Below, piece by piece: positions 1 through 30,086 of a stretch of 64,000 nucleotides of DNA; the first letter of the stretch is position 1, and each line of letters begins with the position of its first letter. A model generated the notes under the pieces. That model was given only the letters and a program-made list of their open reading frames with translations, was not told the origin of the DNA and ran no database searches. The stretch comes from Schmidtea polychroa (taxonomy: Eukaryota), in assembly GCA_044892525.1 (NCBI GenBank), contig CM097885.1, forward strand, positions 156,178,001-156,242,000, in the 5' to 3' direction. The translations under genes were made by a program, and so were the position numbers.

Positions 1-2
1 CA

Positions 3-1220
3 ACAAAATGTGGTGTACCAGTATTTGAAACAAATTATAAAGGAATATATTTAGCATACAAATATGTTCCAGCAGCAGAATCATTACATCTATCAGATAT
101 TATGATAGCCAAGTATATCAATAACAAGATTGATTTTTTGTATCATGATTTACAGAAACAATTGTTAGATGTGTATCAGGAAGTGATCCTGAACGATTGT
201 CGGTTAAATCGAGAAATAATATGAAATAGATTAGGAACATCTATAGCTAATCCTGATTTAATAATGCCGATGTTGACAGTGGAAGGAACATTTGGTAGAA
301 TCTTGAGTGAAGCAATTTATAGCTATCAATGTAAAGCAATAGAGGTAGAAATTACCAAATACGATTGATGTACATTAGAGCTTCCTGTGAAATATAAAGG
401 AAAATTGAGATTCATGATACCAGTATCACATCAGGTATTAAAAGAAGATGCCTCACCGTTGACAACAATTTGCAATCCAGCAATGTCACCATTATACAAA
501 ATTAACAATATTTGGATTTCATTGCCAGACAGAAAGCCATCCTCAAAACCTGTTGAAGTACTTCAAGCTACAAAATTAGAAACTAAAATGAAGTTTCGAC
601 CGTTAAATGAGATGTCAAAAGGTGGAGTATGTACTCCGGAAGATATTGAAGAAGCTCGGAGAGCAATTGTATTTCCCCAAATCAGAGATCGGGGAGTAAC
701 AGAGATAATAACAAGAATTTATCAATCATATGATGGAAAACCGGACTATAACTTATTATTTGGACCAGAACACTACAGACAAGCTGCATCAAATGTAATA
801 CGGAAAACCTGGGGTAGATTTACAAGCTTTGACATTTCTGTAGCAGGATGTTCAGGTATATACGCAATAGTGATGATATTGAAAATAATCATATCGCAAT
901 TATTTTCCACCTATAGTATCTTCAAGATCGGTGGATGGTCTTGGAAGTTGCTACTGGGAATGTGTCCAGTATTTCATCATCATAATAAAGAGATCGAGAG
1001 AATGAAGAGACAAAATGTAAAGAAGCATGAATTAATAATGTATGAACATAGTCATCGAGACGATGACAATTCTGACAAGGGAGGTAACCTAGAGGGCTAT
1101 GAGACCTCAGACAACACCTCAATAAAACCAGACAACAAAAAACCGAAATTTCAAAATTTTGAAAATAGTACGTTACAAGAGTACCCTTTTAAACCAAAAA
1201 GGAGGAAACGACAGGCGTAG
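3..1220 (+). pseudogene. C-terminal half of a chuvirus-like (class III fusogen type) envelope glycoprotein; in-frame TGA at 222 and 366
   Basis: Frame 3 reads TKCGVPVFETNYKGIYL...YINNKIDFLY...DCRLNRE...GTFGRILSEAIYSYQCKAIEV...CTLELPVKYKGKLRFMIP...CNPAMSPLYKINNIW...GGVCTPEDIEEARRAIVFP...WGRFTSF...AGCSGIYAIVMILKIII...YSIFKIGGWSWKLL. The Cys spacing and motif order match my recollection of chuvirus G and chuvirus-derived retroelement Env. Hydrophobic TM region near the C-terminus. Confidence 0.75.
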
Positions 1221-1485
1221 CCTGTGAACTATTTGTCACCATTTGAGGGTAGAAAAAAGATAATACCAGAACGAGTTGAAGAGGAAATGTTAAATTGTTT
1301 CGGTTTTAGAACAAATACAGATATATTACCATCTTCCTCATATCCAACGTATCATATGAAGTTCGAAACAATGCCACCCTGGGTACGTCAGTATTAGAGA
1401 TGGTACAAAAATATCCATTTAGCACGTTGAAACAACTAAAGGAAAACTATCAAGACGAAAATGACAAAGATTGCAAAAATCAACA

Positions 1486-2417
1486 TGTTGAGGATACCTA
1501 AATGAAAAATAACATAATAAATAAATAAATTACCTGGGGGAAGATCGTCATGACAAATTGGACGATCTATGGGAACTCAGAAAAGAAAACAGAAGTAAAA
1601 TGAAATTAAAAATGAGAAAGATAAATCAAAAAGAAGGAAACAAACAAGAAATTAAAACAAAGGTCATTGTTAATTAAGAAATACAAATGAAGGTGGAATT
1701 TCAAATTCCAGAAAAACAAAATAAGGGAAAAAGCCGTATCTTGACAGCTTGTCAAAGATAGCAAAATTGTTGGGAGAAGGCGGCTTAACAGAAAAGGAAA
1801 ATGGAAAAATATCTTGACATCTGTCAGAGATAAGGCTGATGTAGAGGGAAAGGAAAATGGTAAACAGAATCTGTCGCCAGTGCCACAAACAAAAAAACTA
1901 TATAAAGGAAAACTGGTGGACGAGAAATCAGAACAGATTGAGAACAAATTTAGAACGAATTTAGAACAGATTTAGAACGAAAACAGAACGAAATTAGAGA
2001 CAAAAAGTAGAGTAAAATTAGAGACAAAAGAGTTAAAATGGGAATCAAAACAAAGTGAAAAGAGAAGTGACAAGAATCTTTTATAAAATTGAATATAAAG
2101 TAAAAGTGGAGTAAATAAATTGTGTGGTCAAAGCAAATAGAACAATGATCAAAATATTCTGTAATTGAGTAGTTGACGGCTAGTGATTATTGTTGTGGTT
2201 ACAGAAAGGGCTATTCTTCACGTAGTGTCGAAATAAGCTCTGTGTGATAAATTGGTTTATAGTTAATTGGTTGTAATTGAAATTTGTACTATTACGTGTG
2301 GATATTAATAAAGCTTATTGTGTTCAAGAGTGTTGAATTGCGAATTAATAAACACACTTTGGAGCCAGAGTAAAGGTTTGACTTTACAAATATTGTCACC
2401 AACACAATAACCCAACA
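1486..2417 (+). mobile_element. Solo LTR (family A, 932 bp) inserted in the glycoprotein-protease linker
   Basis: Termini TGTTG...CAACA; 4-bp TSD AACA at 1482-1485 and 2418-2421; homologous to 28379..29345 (inverted); removing it restores an open frame into the protease. Confidence 0.9.
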
Positions 2418-2421
2418 AACA

Positions 2422-5400
2422 AAAATTCAGAGATAATATTCGAGGAATCTCAACAATATTAATGGTCAATACAATTAAAAAGACTCATAAGCCTACGATT
2501 AAATTAAAGGTTAACAGGCATACGGTTCATCCCATTATTGACTCAGGATCAGATTTGACACTGATCGAAGCAAATTTATTAAATGAAAGAGAATTACAAG
2601 CAATAGTGCCGACATTAACTGTGGCATCGGGAGCAAACGGACAACCTATCAATGTTATCGGAACATTAGATTGTGATTTAAGGTTGCGTGATTAAAAATG
2701 TAGACATGATATGTAGAATGTATAGGCGGAATGTATCGTGGGAATGGATATATTGAAAAAGTTAAAAGAAATTGTATTCGATTGTGCAACAGGCTAATTA
2801 GTAAAAGTTACGAGTAGAAAACGGGAAACCTACAGTTTAGATGTAGTGTTTTTGGATAGAACGGTGACAATACCAGCGAGGACCGTAACAGTTTGTTTTG
2901 TAGCAACACACCAAGAGGTGGAATGAGATGTTATTTTCGAACCGAGTGAGCAGTTCGTAAATAGATATAAAACGCCTATGGTGCAAAACTTGACAACAAA
3001 ACGGGGAGGAAGAATCCCAATCAGATTTACGAATCTAGCAAGCAAATCATTGAGACCAGAGTGGGTAAAATAATACAACTTTCTAACTTAAAGAAAGAGA
3101 CTGAATGGATATTATCGGTACAAGAGGATGAACGAGATCCCGATATCGAATATTATGATGCACCGAGCTGCGATAGTAAAGCTTTGTCTAGAAAATAAAA
3201 TATTAGAGTTAACCAGTTGTTACGTAAATATGACCAAGTTTTTGCCAAACACGAATATAACCTAGCTCAAGTTAATATTTTAGAGCATGAAATAAAATTA
3301 ACAGAAAGTAAACCGATAAAAATACGCCCGTACAGAATACCTCAAAGTATACAAGGGTCCGTAGATAAACAAATTAAATTAATGCAAAAATATAATATAA
3401 TCAGACCCAGTAAATCTCCATATTCCTTACCTTTGGTGGTTGTAGCTGAAAGAGACGGCTCAGTTAGATTATGTAATGACTATAGAAAATTAAATGAACA
3501 AACAGTTAGTGATAATCATCGGCTACCTTTGTTAAATTATATTCATGATAAAATGAAAAATTCAAAGTTGTTTATTGTGATGGATGCACAGAAAGGTTTT
3601 TATCAAATAAAGATGAGCGAAAACTCAATTCCTATGACAGGATTTTCTACAAGTAGTGATCATTTTGAATATCTAGTGATGCCATTTGGATTAAAAGGAG
3701 CCCCTCCAACCTTTCACAGAGCTATAAACATCATGCTGATAGATGCACATCACGCAATGGTATATATAGACGACACTATCATCTTTTCGGAAGATTAAGA
3801 TAAACATTTAGAACATCTTGAGGATATTTTTAAAAGATTGATTATAGCAAATCTCAAGGTAAAACCAAGCAAATGCAAGTGGGCAGAATCGGAAGTGATT
3901 TACGTAGGGCATGTAATATCACACGATTGCGTAAGACCAGATCCGGCTAACATGGATAAAGTGAAGAATTTCCCACAACCGGTGAATGTTAAACAAATCA
4001 AAGGATTTTTAGGGTTGACGGGATATTATAGGAAATTCATTCGGAATTTTTCAGCAATTGCTTTTTGTTTAACTACCTTAGAAAAGAAAGGAATAAAATT
4101 TTTATGGGGAGAGGATCAGTAACAATCGTTTGACAAGTTGAAAGATGCTCTATGTAATCCACCAATTCTACGATTTCCTGAATTTAAAAGACGGTTCATG
4201 GTGATGACCGATGCATGCACAAGTTTTGGGACAGAAAGACGAAAATGGCGATGAATACGCAGTAGCATATGCAAGTCGTGGATTGAAGCCACACGAAAAA
4301 AAGTTATGCTGTGATAGAATTGGAAGCATTAGCATTAGTATTTGCAGTGGAGAAGTTTAGTCATTACCTATGGGGCAGAAAGGTAGTTTTCTATACAGAC
4401 CATAGACCATTACAATGTTGTTAAAACATAGAGACTAAGTATCGAAATTAGTAAGATGGGCATTGAGATTACAGCCATATAATATCGAAATTGTATATCG
4501 TAAAGGTAAAGCGAATGGTAATGCAGACGCATTATCACAAATGGAGCAAGAGCCTGAGTCAGAAGATATAAATGAAGGAAGATTAGAAGGAACTATTTTC
4601 ATGCTAACAAGCGAGGCTAACACTTTGAGTGATTTAGTAGAAGCGCAGAAAAATGATGACTAGATCAATATGATCAGTCAAGCTATCGAAGTAAAGGTCA
4701 TACCAAACGAGATTCAGAAATATTGGGAGAAACATAAAGATAAATTCCTATTGGAAGAAGGCCTAATCAAATATATGAAATCAAGAGATAATGTAATATT
4801 AGTACCAAAGAAATACAGAAAATCGTTATTATTACAGTACCATGATGGATCACTTGGAGGACATCTCTCAGGTCTAGATTTAAAAATGAAATATTTCTGG
4901 CCAGATATGAAAGATGATGTTAAAAGTGGTGTCAATCGTGTAAGATATGTGTAACCAGAAGGAACACAGGCAGGAAACCACATGTTCCTTTGAAACCAAT
5001 GCCAGTACCGTCCTCGCCAATGGAGATGACTCTATGGACGTATTAAGGCCGTTTAAAGAATCGAAGATGGGAAATAAATTTATCATAGTATTTTGCGACT
5101 ACTTAACGAAGTGGTCTGAAGCATTCCTAATTCCGAATCATAAGGCAGACACAATTGCCAGAATCTTTGTTGAACAAATTGTATGAAGATATGGTGTTCC
5201 GACAAAATTGCTTACCAACAGAGGAAAGGATTTTATGAGTAATCAACTGAAGAGTATAAATGATTACTTTGGTATTTTAAAGTTAAATTCGTCACCATAC
5301 CACCCACAGACGATTGGGTTGGTAGAAAGGTTCAATGGAACATTGACAAACATGTTATCATCATACTTAAACTCAGGTCAGATCGACTGGGATGTGCACA

Positions 5401-5950
5401 TACCATCGTGCTATTTTGCGTATAGATATGCTGTTCATTCAGTTACAAGAGAAACACCTTTCTATCTGATGTACTTAAGGCATAGCAAGAAGCCAGTGTA
5501 TCTTATATTTTATCCGAAATTGTGATGAAGGAAACTACTTATTCGAGATGAAAGAAAGAATGATAGAAGCCTGGGAGAAAGCAGGTTTGAACATTCATGA
5601 TCGCAAAGCAAAGGATCATGGGTTTGTGGTAAAAGACTATATGATGTTGGAGGGGCATTACAACAAAAAAGGGTTTGTCTCCGAAATTAATGAGAAATTA
5701 CAAAGGGCCATATCAAATTTTGAAAGTTACAGAAACAAATTTGGTCTTGCAGTTAGTGGCAAACAAGAAAGCAGAACCCATTATGGTTCATGCGAACAGA
5801 TAAAAAAAAGATAGTTCCACCAGAAAAAGAGAAACCAAAATCAGAGATTGATGAATTCAAAATAGATAAGAAATCGAAAAAGAAAACGTTAGAATCATAT
5901 TAAAGTATCCTAAAGGGACAACCAGAACGATACCCTTTACGATCTCGACA
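2422..5950 (+). pseudogene. pol: Gypsy pol (aspartic protease, reverse transcriptase, RNase H, integrase), fragmented
   Basis: ORF-track pieces 2462..2695, 3217..3798, 3838..4122, 4463..4663, 4670..4954, 4947..5186, 5208..5525 carry consecutive pol motifs. The C-terminal PIMVHANR and RYPLRSR motifs are typical of gypsy integrase tails. Confidence 0.92.
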
Positions 5951-6962
5951 GATCCCGAAAACAGTAATTTTTCTAGCTGTAATTAGTTGTGTTATGATGA
6001 TGGGACAAGCATTTGAGATGTTTATACCAAAAGCAAGTCAACATCCAGATTTTGAATATCAACGAACAGGTAGAGCATTCAGATTTTGTTTAACAAATAT
6101 ACAATGGTACAGATTTGATCTATACCTGGCAGCTGCTGAGAAAGGAATATCGTTTCACTTGAATATATGGGATCGTGTAAAAGTAGTAGATGGACTGATG
6201 CCAAATACAAGTTATCTTCTAGAAATCAATACATTTTTTGCTGACCCAAACGTTTTTGCAGACGGAGGAGATTGTGTGGATAAAGCAGCATGCATTCTGA
6301 AGACTGCAGTATTTACTAAAAAAGTGGAGATTTAATATCTCGGGCAAATAGTAAGGTTTAGTCATCTATTGTGGAGGAGAAATGATACGTTTTACGCTCA
6401 AGATTGGAGGATAAATAATAGAATCGCGCTTATCGTTATATTGGAAAATAACCATCGAGTCAAGAAATTAGAGCTCAACCATGCGTATCAACGTAGAAGA
6501 TGGACAATCAAACAAAATGTTGTGACAAAGGCTAACATTTCGTATTTAGAATTTACTGAGAGAACGGTTGGTATTCAGTACATCACGAAATGGTAGATTT
6601 AATACCTTCCCAAAGGGAAAACTAACTAGCAAAGAAGGAAAGGCTAGATTAGTAAATATTCCTGGTTGTAGAGGAATAAATGCTATGGATTGGATTAATC
6701 TTCGAAAGGTAGCGAGTGAAAAACAATCCCGTATAAATAAATTAATTAATAACTGTAATTGTCAAAAGATAAAATGCCAACCTGGTTATTCATAGTTATA
6801 ATAGGGGGAGTAATTTGCATGATTTTAACTTTAATATTAGCTACCCTATGGATGTTTAGATTAATTATGCGGGATATCCGTTATTGGGAAAATATTTACG
6901 AAACCGAGGTAAGGTGGAAAAAGTCTCACCATATACTAGGAAGTGTAAATATATATATATAA
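5951..6962 (+). pseudogene. Predicted type I membrane protein (signal-like segment, FN3-like motif, TM helix) in frame with the integrase tail; disrupted
   Basis: PERYPLRSR continues in frame into QIPKTVIFLAVISCVMMMGQA (signal-like); VVDGLMPNTSYLLEINT resembles the FN3 E-F strand signature; TM WLFIVIIGGVICMILTLILATLWMF in 6759..6962. Confidence 0.55.
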
Positions 6963-7114
6963 TTATTTATTCGATATTTTATTTATATTAATATGTAAAC
7001 TAATGTGGGCTTAACAGAGCATCGGTAAAATCAGACATCAGCGAATGTTGACTTTGGTTACCCTGCGAGGGTCTATCACGAAAGTGATAAAAGCTGTTAA
7101 TATTTTTTTTAGAA

Positions 7115-9100
7115 ATGAATTACAACAGAGAACCAAAGCCACAAGTCCGAGAAAATCGACGACACCCATTGGCAACGTACAATCACCAGACTCGAGTTGA
7201 TACAGAGGTATACAGTACATATACAGGTTCATCGGAACCATGGTTGCAGCGAAAATGAACCATCTCACCTCAAATTATTGGTATTATCCTAAGAGAGTGG
7301 ATATTCCAAATGATTTTAAATTCCCAGGCCTCGAAGGCAAATGATGGTGACGGTTGTGAAAAACCAAGGGAGATTGAAACTGGCGGAAATATGCAGAGAA
7401 TATGGCTCTTGTCAAAAGTTAGAAAACATTTGGATCCATGCGATAAATAGGCCATTCACTGTGTTTATGGTGGGATTAGAGTTACCAGCGGAACTGGAAA
7501 AACAGTGCACTTTGGAGATATATCATGTTGATGGACTAGAACGAAATATTATGATCCAAACAGCAGCAATTAACACCATAATCGTGTTAGAAATCCTGGA
7601 CTTTAAGAAGCCATACCTTATAGTTTGTAAAAATGAACCGTCATGCATTTACAATGTAAATGAAGCTGATATACAGCAGTGCAAATCGTTTGTGAAGAAA
7701 AATTTAACCAAAGCCGAGGAGGATGAGACTACAATTTTCATATCGGCAGGTTTTGCCAAATCCAGAATTGAACTAAAAGAAACCCTTATCCAGATTGCGA
7801 TTATGGATATGAAAGGAAATAATTTATTGAGTGCGGTAGTGACCCTCAGAGATCCAGTTAAACACTACCAAACGCACTAATACAAGTTGAAGGAACCCGA
7901 TATCAGAGGAAATCTTGACGAAGAGGATTGTTATCACATTATAAGGAAGATTTGGGATAAGAAAATTCTTGTAGACATTTTGCTTAAAGATTTGATCTCG
8001 GTAGCCAATCTACCTGTGCAGCGATTATTTAGTATCCGTGACCTTTCTTAAAACAAATTATTGGAAACCAGAGGAGTCCCTAAGATTCATGAGCATTACA
8101 GATTGGGATTCCTGACAAAGACTTTCTCCCGGAGAATCAAGGAATTTAGTGGTCACCAATGAGACACTAGTAATACGTGCAGTTTACGTACATATTAGAA
8201 ATGAATGGTTAGACCATATCACGATACCCCAGGAGGGATTCGTTTCCGCAACTACAGCAGCGATAGTTGAACAGGAAATGGCACAGAAGAGGAGATTACC
8301 CAAGCAGCCATCTACATCGGATCAAACCCAGCCAAAGAGGAAATAACCTGTGGACCTACCAACGCCTCCGGTTATATCAATAGGAAAAGAGGACGAGTAT
8401 GTGAGGAATGTGATGCGGAAACGGCAAAAACACCCAAACAATCGACTAGCACTACCTATCAGCCAAAAAATAAGCCAGAAACTGCAACAAGAAAGGAAAA
8501 CCTGGAAGGAGGTAAGGTGAGGAAGATGTTAAAGAAAATGTTACCAGTAAAAAGAGACTAGTCGAAATTAAAGTTGAAAAAGGTTGTTAAACCATCTGAA
8601 AAAACATCAACAGTACAATCCAAAAGAGTGGAAGAAAGTCAAAGCAAACCGAAGAAAATATTTAATGAGCCAGAGGACGATATCATGGAAGTTGCCTTTC
8701 AACCTCCGGTTAAGGAATTGCAAGAAGCGATAAGGGTAAAATCGGAACCTGTAATTTGCAAAAAGTTGTTGAAGATTGCAAAGAACATGATAAAAAACCA
8801 GTATCGGTTGATGTGGATGAATTCGAGCCTATGTGGTATAAACGTCCTGACAGTAAATGGAAACCCAGAGCCAAATAGTATGACACATATGACGTAGACG
8901 GAATCCCTTACGTAGTGTCTACGGTCATATTAACAAGCGCTTTGGATGGTAAGGCTCTGGCAGTGAGTTTTGAGCCAGAAGTCTTGCAGAAGCGGAAAAA
9001 GAAGCTGCAGCGGCAATACGTTATTGCGAATGGCTACAGCACAACGGAACTAAACCTTTACAAGATCCCAGAACCAGATCCCGACGATCTGGATATTTAA
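7115..9100 (+). pseudogene. Accessory ORF3 with a REX4-like DEDDh exonuclease fold (~7731-8215) and a K/E-rich tail; disrupted
   Basis: ATG at 7115 follows a TTTTTTTTAG acceptor-like run. IQIAIMDMKGNNLL..VV..RDPVKHYQTH...KILV..LLKDL...IRD...SLRFMS...VIRAVY...EW parallels the REX4 pattern ARISIVN..G.V.LD.FVKP...V...RT...RILVGH.LKHDL...LRD...SLKKL...ATMLLY...EF. Confidence 0.55.
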
Positions 9101-9372
9101 TCAGGGAATGTTGCCTCTCAACAATTGTCGTCGAAGCCACTGTGTTCAGTTGATTATCCAGTTATTTGATATGGTGATTATTCAGTTTTTGACATTAATG
9201 ATCCAGTTATTTGTGATTTGAAACATTTGTTTTATTTTTCGGTGTAAATAATTAAAGTTGAATTTTCTTATTTGATTAATTTTTATATTTTATTGTAATG
9301 CTGTTTATCGAAAGTCTTTCTTAAGGTTACTTATCTTGTTTTCGAGACGAAAATCTTTTAGGGGGTAAGACT

Positions 9373-10771
9373 TGTTAGGGATAGGCCTGGAGACTGAAAT
9401 AATAAAACAATAAAAATTACTAAATTTAGAAATAGTATATTAAAAGAAAATAAACAATTACTTATAATAGAAAAAGGTTAAAAAAAATTACTTAAAATAA
9501 AGTTTAGTCATATTTAAAATAATATAAATAAAAATAATCTATAATTAGTAACAATTGGTGTTACTAATACTATATATAGTATATATTACTATTAATATTA
9601 TAAATAATTATATTTGGATATAAATAGAGATTCATATAGAGAACCAGGGACGAACAATTTAAGACGCAAATTTCAGACGAGAAATTTTCAGACAAAGAAC
9701 ATAAAATTAAAAATAGGGCATTTCTGTGAAGAAACATGATTAAAGAATCACCATGTAAATTGATTAGATTTTCGAGAGGAAAACAATTTGATTAGTTTGA
9801 TTTTAATTAACTAAGGAGATTTGATCGGAGATTTTGATCAGTACAATTCATTTAAATTGTTGAGAGAGAAATTTCACAAGGAGAGGAAAAATTTGAAACT
9901 ACGATTGAAGAGACGATTGACCAAAGTAAAATATTTATTGTTTGTTTGAAGGATGAGTTACTATCCTTGTGTCGTTTCGTTATTGTGAAATTTAAAAGAA
10001 CGATCACAAAGTATTGACAACTTACTTTTGTATTCCCTGGGTGTCCCAAAATAATCCCACTTGCTTAACCATTTCTTTCATCGACTTTGCGATCGTTGTA
10101 CTACACATGGGCCATCGACCTCTTGTAGGCTGAGATAAACAGCAGGGATTAATAAATCCATGTCTTGAATTTTTCTTCTGTACATTTATAAAATTACCAT
10201 TTGTAAATTGTTCAATAAAAGTTTTTATAAAAGAAAAGAGAAGTTGTCTTTTTTATTTGATTTAAATACGCGCAACCACATTAAATATTTTATATCTAAA
10301 TTTATATTTATTTATTGGAGTCATAGTGTTAAGGTTAAAAGCCCCCATCTTTTCGATCTTAACAGAAGTAAAAAACGAATTCAAAACTTAATGTTGACCA
10401 AATCATTTTGAATCTTAGCGTATGAGAAAGGGAGATCTCTTATTGGAAGATATTTCCAATGTGCAGGTTTGAGGTTGAAATTGAAAGTGTGCAGAGCAAG
10501 AGTTACTTAAAGTGGTGCAAACTGAAATTGTTTCATTAAAGTGTGTAAAAAATAAGTGTAATTGTGGTAATTTAGAATAAATATTATTGTGTTGGGTTGT
10601 TCGATTTGCTTAATAAAAGGACACCAAGAATTCAGTCAGTGATACCGACTTACCAAAATATCCAAATTTATAAAAATGTTGTAAAGTAAAAATCAGTGAA
10701 TTTTTACCCACTTGTTAATTAATATTGACTTTGTTTTCCAATTTTTAAATAATTTTTTTATTAATTTTAAC
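9373..10771 (+). repeat. Probable 3' LTR of the Gypsy element (right boundary uncertain)
   Basis: Begins TGTTAGG immediately after the purine tract at ~9360; AT-rich; the candidate end ...TTTTAACA at ~10771 is a guess. Confidence 0.35.
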
Positions 10772-15925: not shown

Positions 15926-16750
15926 CAATTAGATGAAATTGGCAAAGAAAGTAATTGTATATGGTTCGCACGCAATGAACAGACACGAAGTGGGCTATTG
16001 TAGCACTAGGAAAGAATTTTTAGACACAATTTATTTTACCGAACATTTCAAACATTATTTATATGGTAAAAGGTTTAAACTAAGAACAGACTATAAGGCA
16101 ATAACGTTCATGTTGAAGACTAAAAAGCCAATAACATCTCAATTTGAAACATGGATTAACCAATTAGGTGGTCTGAACATTGAAATGGTATACCGTAAAG
16201 GAAAAATGCATTCTAATGCATATGCATTATCAAGAACTGAATGCGAAACGTGTTTACAATGTAAAACGAATCACGAAGAACTACAAACAAGAAAACTAAA
16301 AACAAAGATTCAAAAAAAATGATTTTGAAATTGAACGTCAATTTAGAACTGTTATAGATGCCATCCAAATTTCCTTAAAAGAAACAACGGGCAAAGACTT
16401 GGTTGAAATACTTCCTGAAGTTGAATTTATGTTGAATGCGAATTTTCAAAAAACAACTCAGCTGAGTTCTGCACAAATTGTTCTTGTGAAAAAAGTTGCC
16501 AGAGAACGATATAAAAATGACAAACCATGTGAACTACAATTATTAATGGAAAAGCGAAAATCAGGAAAATTAAAGTTACTAAAACAAATGCATGAAAATA
16601 TGAAAGATGAATCATATTTCAATGAAGTAAGACCAAGTCGAATTTTCAATGTTGAGGATGTTCTTTTTGGTAAATAAAAATAATGTGGCAAATAAAAATA
16701 AAGACAGATTTGTGGGTCCAAGGAAAATAATGAAAGAGTTGTATGACAGA
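15926..16750 (+). mobile_element. Gypsy pol fragment (RNase H end plus integrase end, internally deleted); inverted relative of the element at 27222-30000
   Basis: HFKHYLYGKRFKLRTDYKAI...YRKGKMHSNAYALSR; nucleotide-level homology to the reverse complement of 27570-28378 and 29346-29490. Confidence 0.85.
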
Positions 16751-19700
16751 ATTACTAGGATTGATTTATATAGATTTTATTCGAAACTTTGATAAATTTT
16801 GTAGTGTTTTAAACTAAATTCTTTGTTACAAAAGAAAGGAAAAGACTTACTAAAAGCCTAACAATGTCGCTAACGAGAAATTGAAATTTCTTAAAATTTT
16901 GTGTCTTAAAATCTATTGAAAATAAGTATAAGATTCCACCTTAGTAAAACTAATGAATCTCATAATGATCTTATGGCAAACCCAAATTTCTAATAAACGA
17001 GAGCAGGGGTATAAAGAGACACATTCTGGATATTATCAGCAAAACAAATAAAAAATGGGGTATAGGCTACATCTCAAAGGGGTCAATTTTCTATATATTC
17101 TAAGGACCGATTGCATTATCAATGCCTTTTTTGACTATCCATAATATTTTTTTTAGAATGGAAATGTTAATCTTATAATTTACATGACCGGGGTCGACAA
17201 ATGTAAATATTTTTTAATAGTTTCTAAGCGTATAATAATTTTAAGAAATTAGGGAATCATGATATAAAATAAAAATTTGCAGCCATATATGTAAAAAAAA
17301 TGGCCATATCATTAATTGGATAGAACTATATAAAGTAATACCATCATTATGGGTTATAAATGAAATTCAGTGTAATGTTAGTTTCAAATTTAAAAAAATC
17401 CTCTATGACTAAGATAACATGAAATTAAATAACTTTAGAAAAGTTTTAACTTACGAAGCTTTCATTTATCGTTACATCTTTTCACTGTTCATACAATTAT
17501 TTTTTTATTATTCAAATAAAGATAATAATCAAACAAAATGAATTAACGAGCATAACATTAGCATGGCAGTGAGTTTTACAATTACAGGAAAGTAAAAATG
17601 CATGATAATTTAAATTACATTTCAGTAGCATAATAAAGAAAATCTATATACCTTATCTAATATGTCGTATCTAATCTGATAAAACAATAAATAACAATAT
17701 ATAATCAAATAGATTACTTTTAACATTGACAAAAAACATTCGACTTAAAATATATTTATATTTTGCCGATGAAATCCCTACCATTCTAGTACAGCCTTGG
17801 GCAAACTATTAGGGAAGGGAGACACTAAAAATTTTAAATTGGATTGCAGGACCGCCAAAAAATAAATATTTGATAATATAGATTATATCATTTGATTTTC
17901 TTTGAAGTTGTAACGCCCTATATTTATAAAATTTATTTTTATTTATAAAAAATAGCATTACTAGGTGAATGAATTCAATGATATGAGCTCTGGTTGGTGT
18001 TAAAATGGTACCTTACATCGTTTACATTGATTTGTTATTATAATAATAAGTTCGCAATAATGATTTATTGGTACAGTCAACCTTCGTTTATCGATAGCCT
18101 ACGAAACAACCAACGAATAATTTTAAACAGTTTCGGATAAACAATGGATTTAAAAAAAGTTTTAACTATCAGTAAAATCTTTTTTCATTTACCCTTTGTC
18201 TGTTTAGATTTTTGCTTTATTTTCATTATGACTATAGATCAAAATTTAATTAATGCAGCTTGAATGTTGATGGAGAGTAAGTCTTCATAAGAGATTCTTA
18301 AACCAATTTTGTAACATTTGGCATTTTGTTTATTCTATAGATAACGCCATCTAATGTTATTTTTCCTAATGTTCGTGGAAATTAATAATTTTATTTTTGA
18401 TATGTTCATTAAATATTGCGCGGAGGGTTTTGTGAGTCTCGCCTGTGTAAGTTGAGTCACGTCTTAAACAAGTCAATTTACAAATAAGATTTTCTGAAAA
18501 ACAAAACGGAAAATATCTTTCATTATGTTCTGCATTGTTGTGCAACTCTTTCTTTTGGCGATTATTTTTTCATATTCGTTAAACCTTAAACACTGATAAG
18601 AACCAAATGACGCGTCCTCAGTAAACAATTCTCAGTGAATTGAACCATCTGATGTTCCAACTCTATTTTGTTCCTTCTTTCTGCGATGCCATTTGTCTTT
18701 AATTTCCACTCGCCTCTATTTTCTCTGATAACCTATCCGATATTAATAACTGCCAAAATTCCCGCTCATGTGAGTGGTTGCTGGTGATATATAATCCTGC
18801 GTTAAAGGATAAAGTAAAGCAAGCAGTTTTCTTTTTAAATCTTTCAATGAACTTTTAACAAAGAAGCCGCTCTAAAATCTTCAGTTAGTTTTACACTTAA
18901 AATTAATAGGATTACTCTTTAATTATTTCACTCAGTTAAGTAGTTTCTATCATTATTCTTCAAACACTTAAAATATACTTAGAAAGTGATTGGGCTAAGT
19001 TATTTTGTGCTCTGGAGTCTAAACTACGCTATTGATGGAATTCATTCAAATTAATTGAAGAATTGTTTTTGAAAATACAATGAAAATAAAAAACAATACC
19101 ATGCTTACTGTAACCTGGATTGTGTACTCCATTTTAGTTTGCACACTAGTTCATTTATGAAGTACTGCTAGTCCTTTAAAGAAAAAATTAAAAAGACAGA
19201 AAAGAGAAATAACATTTATTTTTATAAAGTCGGAATATCCCAGTGACGTGCCAAAGAAGAAAAAGCGTGATTAAACTCTCTACAGTACGAAGGTAACAGA
19301 ATTCATAGGAATAGGAAAATAAAATTATCTTATATTATCCTGACCGACAAATTTCTCTTTCCGTAACAATAGACCAAAAATGACACTCATGGATAAAATC
19401 TCTATTGACTAATTTTATCTGTACTTTTTAAAACTTTATTAATAATATCGCCAATTGCATAAGTATTTACAGCGTTTTCAATGTTATCAAAATATAGATT
19501 ATATTGTTATATATCATCTGAAAACGTGCATTCCTTTTCACAAATTTATTTCTTCGCAAATTATAAAAATACAAATCTATTTTAAAAATCTTTTTTTTGA
19601 TAATTCGAATTATAGAGAAATGTAAAAATTAACAAAAAAATGTATCATTTTTAAGATTATCAAAAGTCCGCGTTATTATTAAATTTTTGAAATTAGTTTC

Positions 19701-27488: not shown

Positions 27489-28378
27489 TCCCCCTCATTT
27501 TATAATGTTTGATCAATTTCACATTTCTAATTTTCACTTTTCCATTCTGACATTCGATCCTGAAACTTCTGCCATACAACTCTTTTATCATTTTCCTTGG
27601 ACCCTCAAATCTGTCTTCATTTTTATTTGCCACATATTTTTACCAAAAGAACATCCTCAACATTGAAAATTCGACTTGGTCTTACTTCATTGAAATATGA
27701 TTCATCTTTCATATTTCCATGCATTTGTTTTAGTAACTTTAATTTTCCTGATTTTTGCTTTTCCAATAATAATTGTAGTTCACATGGTTTGTCATTTTTA
27801 TATCGTTCTCTGGCAACTTTTTTCACAAGAACAATTTGTGCAGAACTCAGCTGAGTTGTTTTTTGAAAATTCGCATTCAACATAAATTCAACTTCAGGAA
27901 GTATTTCAACCAAGTCTTTGCCCGTTGTTTCTTTTAAGGAAATTTGGATGGCATCTATAACAGTTCTAAATTGACGTTCAATTTATCTATTAGCTGAATG
28001 ATGATACGTACTTGTTTATATACTAAATTAATACCATGTTTCTCTGCAAATTCTTTTAATAAAGCTGGCTGAAATACTTTTGCTCTATCACAATAAATAG
28101 TCATTGGAGAATCAAATTTCAAAATCATTTTTTTTGAATCTTTGTTTTTAGTTTTCTTGTTTGTAGTTCTTCGTGAATCGTTTTACATTGTAAACACGTT
28201 TCGTATTCAGTTCTTGATAATGCATATGCATTAGAATGTATTTTTCCTTTACGGTATACCATTTCAATGTTCAGACCACTTAATTGGTTAATCCATGTTT
28301 GAAATTGAGATGTGATCGGCTTCTTAGTATTCAACGTAGACGTTATTGCCCTATGGTCTGTTCTTAGTCTAAACCTTT

Positions 28379-29345
28379 TGTTGGGTTATTGAGTTGGTGA
28401 TAAATTTAAATGTTACTCTGTCTCCAAACGTGTCTTTATACGATTCACAAATAACACTTGACAACAGAAATCTTTATTGATAATCACAAATAAACTTTCT
28501 CTTCACACTGACAATCAATACAACATTCTGCATGGTGTCTATACAATGCCTATTACAACACTCGGTGAGGAATTGCACTTGCGTGTGGCACCGGATTGAA
28601 AGATCACAAATTACTGATTGGTTTATCAACTTGGACTTTGAGCTGGTTGTTTTCTTTGACCTTGTTCAGAACTTTATTCAAATACTCAAATAACTTCTTA
28701 TCGTTTAATTTTTCAACTAATTCTTATATTCAAATCTTCTCCAACAATTATTCTTCGCAATTATTTTCTTAAAAATTATTCTTCATAAGTCGTTTTCCAA
28801 TTTTCTCTCTATTCTTTTCTCGCTTTTGTCTCAATTTATCTCTCACGTTTTGTCTCAAATGCGTCACTCTCTGTCTCTAATTTTGTCTAATTTTGTCTCT
28901 CATAGTTTCTCTTTATATAGCTTGTTTATATTCTGGCACTCAAGATAATCAAGTATTTTCCCACTTTCTTTCTCCTGCCTTTCCCGACTGTTCTATTTGT
29001 ATCTCTGACAGCTATCAAGTCATTTTTCCTTTTTCCTTTTTGTTTAACCGTCGTTTCCCAGCAATTCTGCTATCACTGACAAGCTGTGAAGATAAGAGTA
29101 TTGTCGGTATTCCTATTTTCCCAATTTCGAAATTCCTTTTCCTTTCTGTAATAATTAATTAGTACTGACCTTGGTTTTTATTTTCATGTTTGATTTCTTT
29201 TGTTTTCTTCCTCTTCATCATTTCTCATTTCTTTTTGCTTCCGCTTTCTTTCTGAGTTCCTACAGATCATCCTGCTGGTCATGACGATCTTCCCCAGGTA
29301 ATTTTATTTTTTTATTTCTACATTGTTATTTAGGTATCCTCAACA
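28379..29345 (-). mobile_element. Solo LTR (family A, 967 bp) inserted in the RNase H of element B
   Basis: TGTTGAGG...CCAACA termini on minus; 4-bp TSD (CTTT on plus at 28375-28378 and 29346-29349); the empty site GGTAAAAGGTTT is visible in the paralog at ~16075. Confidence 0.92.
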
Positions 29346-30086
29346 CTTTTACCATATAAATAATGTTTGAAATGTTCGGTAAAATAAATTATGGCTAAAA
29401 ATTCTTTCCGAGTGATACAATATCCGACTTCTTGTCTGTTCATTGCGTGCGAACCATATACAATTACTCTTTCTTTGCCAATTTCATCTAATTGTGATAA
29501 AGCTGTTCCGATTCTGTCAAAATTGGCATCTGTGTCCAAAATAAATTCCTTTGTAAAGCCAAAGAATACAAGATTTAAAGCTTTTACTAATTCTTTTTTC
29601 AATTTTTGAAAGGCTTCTTCGCATTAATTTGTCTACATAATTTTTGTCCGATTTACACCGCATAATCTTTCGTGTGGTTTTGAATATATACTATAACTTT
29701 TTTATAAATTGATGATAATAATTTGTTAATCCTAGAAAACTTTGTAATTTGTTAACACATTTTGGAGTTTCAAAATTTTCAATCGCGATGATTTTATCGT
29801 AATCTGTGTGTATCGCTTCATCATTTATGGCATTTTCTCAATATTTTATCTTTTTTTTAATAAAATAATATTTTTTAGACTTATATTTAACCCTGAAATA
29901 ATTTTCTTATTCTCTTATTATTAGAAGCTGCTAAAACATCTTCTAAATTATTTTTTAAATCCGGTTCAAAAGTTAACGTCATAATTCCAAGTATTTATTT
30001 AATGAAATGTTGTATAATTTCCAATCAAATTTTCAGAGTTGAATAAAATATTTCAAAAAACCATTTATTAAAATTTCGATATTTAA

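Follow-up and report, generated by a model that had tools for sequence, protein, structure and literature searches.

The DNA analysed here (the window) is a stretch of 64,000 nucleotides from Schmidtea polychroa (assembly GCA_044892525.1, contig CM097885.1, positions 156,178,001 to 156,242,000, forward strand), and its left end is occupied by what is very probably a decayed copy of a 15.3-kb Ty3/gypsy retroelement of the planarian Burro or GAG-ENV-POL errantivirus kind. The features recognised, in window coordinates, are as follows.

1..1483, + strand: rear half of a class III Env protein (Monjiviricetes/chuvirus/gB-type) with the end of the ectodomain, a transmembrane (TM) segment at about 834-890 and a cytoplasmic tail; contains stops.
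1486..2417, + strand: nested solo long terminal repeat (LTR), foreign to the element, TG...CA, with a 4-bp duplication (AACA); a gap in the comparison with young copies.
2418..3200, + strand: aspartic protease (PR) and spacer preceding the reverse transcriptase; DSGS at about 2540; PF00077 and PF13650; broken; the spacer is dUTPase-like by position only.
3325..4480, + strand: reverse transcriptase (RT) and RNase H (RH); PF00078, with PF17917 matched on the young copy; 93% amino acid identity to the young RT; broken.
4664..5806, + strand: integrase (IN) with H2C2, core and GPY module; PF17921, PF13683 and PF24626; several frameshifts.
5939..6911, + strand: post-integrase predicted type I membrane protein, the last part of open reading frame 1 (ORF1); in frame with Pol in young copies, broken here.
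7101..7114, + strand: candidate splice acceptor, a T-rich tract plus AG, 2 bases 5' of the ORF2 ATG.
7115..9100, + strand: ORF2, with a beta-helix at about 7115-7700, a DEDDh fold at about 7722-8240, a variable linker and a conserved C-terminal block; broken.
9360..9372, + strand: polypurine tract (PPT); the identical sequence adjoins the 3' LTR in young copies.
9373..10364, + strand: 3' LTR, TG...CA; pieces of 71-82% identity to the 1,076-nt young LTR, from first to last base.

The modules in the window belong to one element. Young copies from the same genome (family A, described below) are colinear with the window copy at 84-90% identity along its full length and have no introns, which bears out the initial annotation, where four co-oriented modules without introns had been taken for one element with a virus-like gene set. 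All 10 window segments tested carry breaks (stops or frameshifts, 2.2-9.8 per kb) and their nonsynonymous divergence (dN) from a young copy is 0.04-0.11, so that the similar decay noticed at the outset holds for every segment, in keeping with a single old insertion that has decayed as a whole. The PPT at 9360 and the LTR beginning with TG at 9373 do close the element as proposed, but this LTR ends at 10364 and not at 10771; the sequence from 10365 to about 10665 is a separate dispersed repeat lying outside it. Extension to the left, which had been suggested as the way to find the 5' LTR, was successful: in 20 kb fetched, an 86-nt remnant of the 5' LTR, the primer site and gag lie 0.3-2.4 kb from the window, and a 2.4-kb deletion has taken ORF1 residues ~576-1380 (the ubiquitin-like, Bcl-2-like and front Env parts). 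What remains of Env in the window matches PF24664 at 3-221 (E 1e-7) and 369-1217 (E 4e-29) and is 89% identical in amino acids to residues 1416-1942 of the young-copy ORF1, in which a hydrophobic segment lies at 1755-1773. Along its entire 932 nt the nested solo LTR has 81% identity with each LTR of a related family of Gag-Env-Pol order (L099-L101), and an inverted partial copy of the same LTR family (76%) is present at window 29000-29345. Elsewhere in the window, pieces of a long inverted repeat (15950-16764 and 27554-29468, 86-98% identity, ~11-13 kb apart) probably represent a different repeat that is present twice. The window copy is in itself no more than a common kind of fossil, and most of what follows was learned from its relatives.

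With window 5900-9400 as the DNA query, a search of the same genome raised 152 candidates, of which 37 were scored; these yielded 39 matches, and 29 of the matches are nearly full-length, with 79-81% identity. We fetched 30 kb around each of the six top-scoring copies, a choice from the top of the list that overstates the share of whole copies; all six measure 15.3 kb end to end, with LTR pairs of ~1.08 kb (99.6-100% identical, TG...CA) and flanking 4-bp target duplications. Five have an unbroken ORF1 of 3,516 codons and an ORF2 of 775 codons from stop to stop, the sixth being broken; genome-wide, 10 of 122 matches sit in the 3,516-codon frame. The order within ORF1 is Gag, ubiquitin-like, Bcl-2-like, Env, PR, RT, RH, IN and membrane protein, and the hallmarks of Metaviridae are all present (paired LTRs, target duplication, primer-binding site, PPT, and PR-RT-RH-IN with H2C2 and GPY/F module). 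In its primer site the element carries the complement of the 3' end of tRNA-Trp(CCA) genes found in the same genome. These genes, which encode the primer tRNA of the element clade, form a tandem array with a 284-bp unit (G000:C4 from 55022433, L117), and 821 exact matches to their 3' end were counted in the genome. Co-occurrence of the modules in other copies had been named as decisive for the one-element claim: among the best 40 env matches, at least 32 have the post-integrase gene downstream, at least 31 the exonuclease-like gene and at least 30 both, while 7 have neither 3' gene among the matches listed. Contigs from one sequencing run (run type uncertain, presumed RNA) cover the 3' region, with no junction into ORF2 among those listed.

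Several rearranged forms of the family were also seen. Three family A copies stand at 14,218-bp spacing (G000:C2:100869000-100908000), forming a head-to-tail array whose members would have LTRs in common. Dozens of units of a 2,881-bp tandem array (G000:C3:107054001-107236000 and 106490000-106523000; L072, L073) each carry 2.2 kb of the family A 3' region (part of the membrane-protein gene plus ORF2) at 94% identity, and this array is a satellite born from element cargo. Between subfamilies A and B (L002-L058) synonymous divergence (dS) changes abruptly along the element (Gag 0.1, RT-RH 0.28, Env 0.8, IN 1.2, ORF2 >2), indicating a mosaic made by recombination.

Pfam models match the young ORF1 in the order zinc knuckles, Monjiviricetes fusion protein, protease, RT, RNase H and integrase. 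The fusion-protein match (PF24664, E 7e-82, residues 1449-1835) lies between the zinc knuckles and the protease and identifies a class III env between gag and pol; a single-sequence search of the PDB with the Env ectodomain gave no match, and a signal-like stretch ahead of Env was recognised by eye only. Between Gag and Env are a ubiquitin-like (E 0.003) and a Bcl-2-like (E 0.002) segment, both at scores under the Pfam curated cut-offs, which occupy the same places in a sister family; a four-sequence Bcl-2 profile returned only Bcl-2 family chains in its best 60 rows (top E 0.002). MATH, BIR and ankyrin domains had no Pfam match in ORF1 or ORF2. Every cargo is under purifying selection: dN/dS between subfamilies A and B, computed from one pair of copies per ratio, is 0.04 for Env, 0.05 for protease, 0.02 for integrase and 0.14 for the Bcl-2-like segment. 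Env is retained in every family fetched with that region.

Past the integrase, ORF1 continues with a hydrophobic segment (3193-3211), an ectodomain of ~250 residues, a strong TM segment (3475-3493) and a short tail, and we predict from this layout a type I membrane protein with an internal signal peptide and a beta-rich ectodomain. A protein of this kind stands at the same place in all families fetched: A, B, L103 (a 27% relative), three or four more distant families (L061, L067, L100, L109) and a 35-kb giant. Within the family the tail ends in ETEV at 26 of 29 loci (ENGV at two, not found at one), and across seven families the ends are ETEV, MTTL, ETRL, ETWV, ETFV, ETFV and ATLV. All seven, including families whose ectodomains cannot be aligned, conform to [ST]-x-[VIL]-end, whereas across the whole of the fetched DNA the pattern closes 144 of 3,401 reading frames (4% background). 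Three truncated copies in which no tail could be read were not counted, and two of the seven families are represented by copies with an upstream break. As the seven families are related, this is conservation of a motif and not seven independent events. The pattern is the class I PDZ-binding consensus, and the ETEV tail of Tax from human T-cell leukaemia virus type 1 binds syntenin (PMC12326194). The tail thus ends in a motif of class I PDZ type and is likely to bind scaffolds. Among the folded parts of ORF1 the ectodomain changes fastest (61% amino acid identity between A and B), yet it is still constrained (dN/dS 0.22). The initial annotation had called this protein FN3-like; a membrane protein is indeed predicted, but the FN3 identity was not established and is a lead only. 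In its favour the Atlas gave fn3 a best score of 0.89, with the ten best named matches all from one family or clan. Searches for homologues of the protein in a 5.8-billion set gave none, and profile-profile comparison of the post-integrase segments between family groups was not significant. Directly before the post-integrase signal peptide, five families carry a Y-x-L-R-S motif (window 5939-5960), found near the Gag start in two; it may be a protease site or may resemble the motif with which foamy viruses bind chromatin.

ORF2 combines two folds. A search of 1.84 billion representatives gave 67 relatives (the ten looked up are unnamed), and 12 of 32 scanned matched PF00929 with E up to 0.01. 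An alignment of 55 rows (the query, 52 of the 67 relatives and two genome loci) gave a profile that matches ISG20L2 (7yw5) with E 1e-30 and a model with a predicted local distance difference test (pLDDT) score of 91; the whole ORF2 as a single sequence found no match in the PDB. Residues 199-381 of the model superpose on ISG20 (Z 18.4, root-mean-square deviation 2.8, 161 aligned), and on this modelled structure the domain is an ISG20L2/REX4-like DEDDh fold. Residues 16-170 form a double-stranded beta-helix with a likeness to prolyl hydroxylase (P4H) and AlkB homologue (ALKBH) structures (Z 10-10.8); the HxD...H metal triad of AlkB and other 2-oxoglutarate/Fe(II) dioxygenases is not present in this N-terminal domain, where His is conserved at a single column (37 of 42 rows). 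The label 'exonuclease-like' given to this frame at first holds for the fold, but the catalytic residues are missing in family A. The catalytic D, E, D/E, H, D are kept in 25 of the 46 rows complete there, including two sister families in the same genome; these sister families read D, E, E, H, D, whereas family A reads S, G, L, L, E (the middle column depending on the alignment by one position), and the family A exonuclease is likely to be inactive. Nevertheless the A and B versions of the domain share 88% identity at a dN/dS of ~0.03, the ORF2 domains together giving 0.03-0.05, ratios that are rough as dS in ORF2 is near saturation (2-3). The ORF2 ATG is preceded, at a distance of 2-5 bases, by a T-rich tract plus AG in two sister families as well as in A, B and the window copy; at the methionine tested in two other families this arrangement was not found. 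A host ISG20L2/REX4 donor gene was not found: the genome search, in which intron-split genes can be missed, gave element copies and one ERI1-like gene.

The initial annotation did not recognise the architecture as a described one. For the core this view is not supported, as that is published for Burro (PMC6431247) and for Schmidtea errantiviruses (PMC13524379), and the annotation's fallback guess of a variant of the planarian giant Gypsy elements was right, at half their size. Burro ORF1 contains Gag, a Ubi/SUMO-like segment, BCL2, a mononegavirus-like env in frame between gag and pol, a dUTPase-like segment, RT, RH and IN; the Burro/GYPSM1 giants go back to Jurka 2007 and Grohme 2018, as summarised in the same paper (PMC6431247). 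Family A shares the single polyprotein Gag-Ubl-BCL2-Env-PR-RT-RH-IN (the Ubl and Bcl-2 matches being weak, though at the expected places in two families) but is 15.3 kb long with a 1.08-kb LTR, in contrast to giants of >30 kb with MATH, BIR and ankyrin cargo. It works like Burro and is not one of the giant families. A 35.1-kb Burro1-like element was found in the same genome (G000:C1:96631283-96666417, L090-L094), with 4,791-nt LTRs (99.98% identical), a 4,791-codon ORF1 and downstream frames that are TRAF-like (by eye), BIR and coiled-coil, and the genome as a whole has no fewer than 150 BIR matches. Its Env, RT and IN are 34, 39 and 51% identical to those of family A, and its ORF1 also ends in a membrane anchor and a T-x-V tail; tblastn with the beta-helix and exonuclease-fold ORF2 found no match in two giant copies. 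An RT tree (15 rows) joined family A and the giant at only 94/95 against three other gypsy-type RTs from flanks, with the bootstrap unsettled.

Six Schmidtea GAG-ENV-POL errantiviruses of gB type are catalogued (PMC13524379, eLife 2026), and family A is like them, and like Smed_errantivirus_4 in particular, in its Ty3/gypsy Pol, its class III env between gag and pol, its similar size (Smed_errantivirus_4 is listed with 8 copies and an interval of 14.9 kb including flanks) and its several intact near-identical copies. The Env segments of family A and Smed_errantivirus_4 agree at 164 of 252 positions (gapless, ~65%, counted by eye), making family A a sister family and not the same family. No tRNA primer is listed for the Schmidtea errantiviruses, while that of family A is tRNA-Trp, and in the main text of that paper the terms exonuclease, fibronectin, accessory and Burro do not occur (PMC13524379). 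An abundant sister family in our genome (L060-L062; G000:C1:110157847-110175583) differs from Smed_errantivirus_2 at only 4 of 214 Env positions, counted by eye, against the ~65% identity of family A to its own nearest published relative; if the host is not S. mediterranea, this near-identity would hint at transfer between planarian species. A copy from another sister family (L066-L068, G000:C52) keeps Gag, Env, protease, membrane protein and an ORF2 with catalytic residues, with RT-RH-IN removed in frame, and L104-L105 resembles it.

Among elements further afield, the rotifer LTR elements Vesta and Juno carry a DEDDy exonuclease as ORF3 (PMC5408684), and are like family A in having an exonuclease-fold frame downstream of pol in a gypsy-like element. 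Theirs is, however, RNase D-like with intact catalytic residues and replaces env, whereas that of family A is an ISG20L2/REX4-like DEDDh domain, fused to a beta-helix, inactive-looking and beside a retained env. Maelstrom and EXD1 are examples of inactive DEDD proteins that bind RNA (PMC5408684). Anakin (PMC7642597) likewise represents capture of a chuvirus-type class III glycoprotein by an LTR element, but on a BEL/Pao backbone in mosquitoes, as opposed to the gypsy-type Pol and in-frame env before pol of family A; Pfam scans of the window and young copy contained neither a protease nor an RNase H family of Pao type. Troyka (PMC12440569) was excluded by its CG termini and 3-bp duplications. 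Burro elements are silenced by PIWI and released tissue-specifically (PMC8532177), and further context is given in PMC11410931, PMC9289625 and PMC10175614. The core architecture is thus known, and its two 3' cargo features are apparently undescribed: in the literature searched no paper was found on the post-integrase membrane protein and ORF2 cargo, although Grohme 2018 may already annotate such domains.

As to mechanism, extension from established retroelement and membrane-protein biology suggests that the element moves by ordinary retrotransposition, and possibly from cell to cell through Env. Reverse transcription would be primed by tRNA-Trp and the PPT, and integration would produce the 4-bp duplication. 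Two signal peptides within the single polyprotein, together with two anchors, would thread it through the membrane of the endoplasmic reticulum, leaving Gag and Pol in the cytosol with Env and the post-integrase protein facing outward; cleavage would be the work of signal peptidase and of the protease that the element encodes. The PDZ-type tail would be likely to hold the post-integrase protein at cell junctions or sites of vesicle budding, and the protein itself would be likely to assist Env in attachment or egress. A likely task of the Bcl-2-like domain is to modulate cell death in an anti-death sense, and ORF2 is probably made from spliced RNA, the family A protein probably binding RNA without cutting it; these attachment or egress, anti-death and RNA-binding roles are the less supported parts of the scheme.

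Three rival explanations were weighed. That elements with no connection to one another have inserted into each other at this locus by accident has next to no chance of being true: a solo LTR is indeed nested here and another repeat adjoins the element, but the colinear alignment to complete copies over the whole length refutes it, as do the env copies with both 3' modules. It is very improbable that the 3' cargoes are host-captured passengers in decay, with ORF2 a dying exonuclease and the tail motif a product of chance. Such decay would suit the catalytic residues lost in family A and in 21 of the 46 complete homologues, and the rapid change of the ectodomain; against it both frames are open in young copies, the tail motif far exceeds its background in the seven families, and the dN/dS of the ORF2 domains and ectodomain (0.2 for the latter) largely refutes it. 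A purely intracellular retrotransposon, whose Env and second membrane protein serve inside the host cell or at its surface as decoys or modulators, has a modest but real chance of being the right answer. Particles are not among the evidence drawn from the element sequences, transmission by env is unshown for most elements outside Drosophila (PMC13524379), and Bcl-2-like and ubiquitin-like cargoes are of host-modulating types. Less easily accommodated are the constraint on Env, which equals that on protease and integrase, and its retention in all families fetched with that region.

The fullest reading, which we put forward tentatively and which is rather unlikely to be right, makes functional enveloped retroviruses of the planarian Burro-type elements. 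Their one polyprotein would then supply two glycoproteins, a class III fusogen encoded ahead of Pol and a distinct, fast-evolving attachment protein after integrase, the latter held at PDZ scaffolds for passage from cell to cell into stem cells; the Bcl-2-like protein would be a mimic, and the ISG20L2-derived ORF2 a pseudo-nuclease that binds RNA, both directed against host defence. Besides the sub-threshold Ubl and Bcl-2 scores, the single-pair ratios and the near-saturated dS noted above, several points weigh against the main interpretation set out above. The particle, cleavage, localisation and tail binding are inferred from sequence. The post-integrase ectodomains of the family groups cannot be aligned with one another, so that position, topology and tail are what speaks for a common origin, and the family A ectodomain gave an all-beta model of pLDDT 39, which is a failed model, and no Pfam or PDB match apart from one chance septin row in the PDB sequence search. 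The abundant sister family (L060-L065) is without the exonuclease ORF2, which is therefore dispensable for the clade.

Family A is a compact and recently active member of the enveloped gypsy clade, in a group of model animals whose heredity passes through adult stem cells. Active-looking and dead-looking forms of ORF2 in sister families provide a natural comparison for the use that a retroelement makes of an ISG20L2-like domain. The second membrane protein with its PDZ-type tail offers a direct test of how such elements pass between cells and, if such a protein with a retained tail is truly clade-wide, invertebrate errantiviruses would have a division between attachment and fusion like that of herpesviruses or paramyxoviruses.

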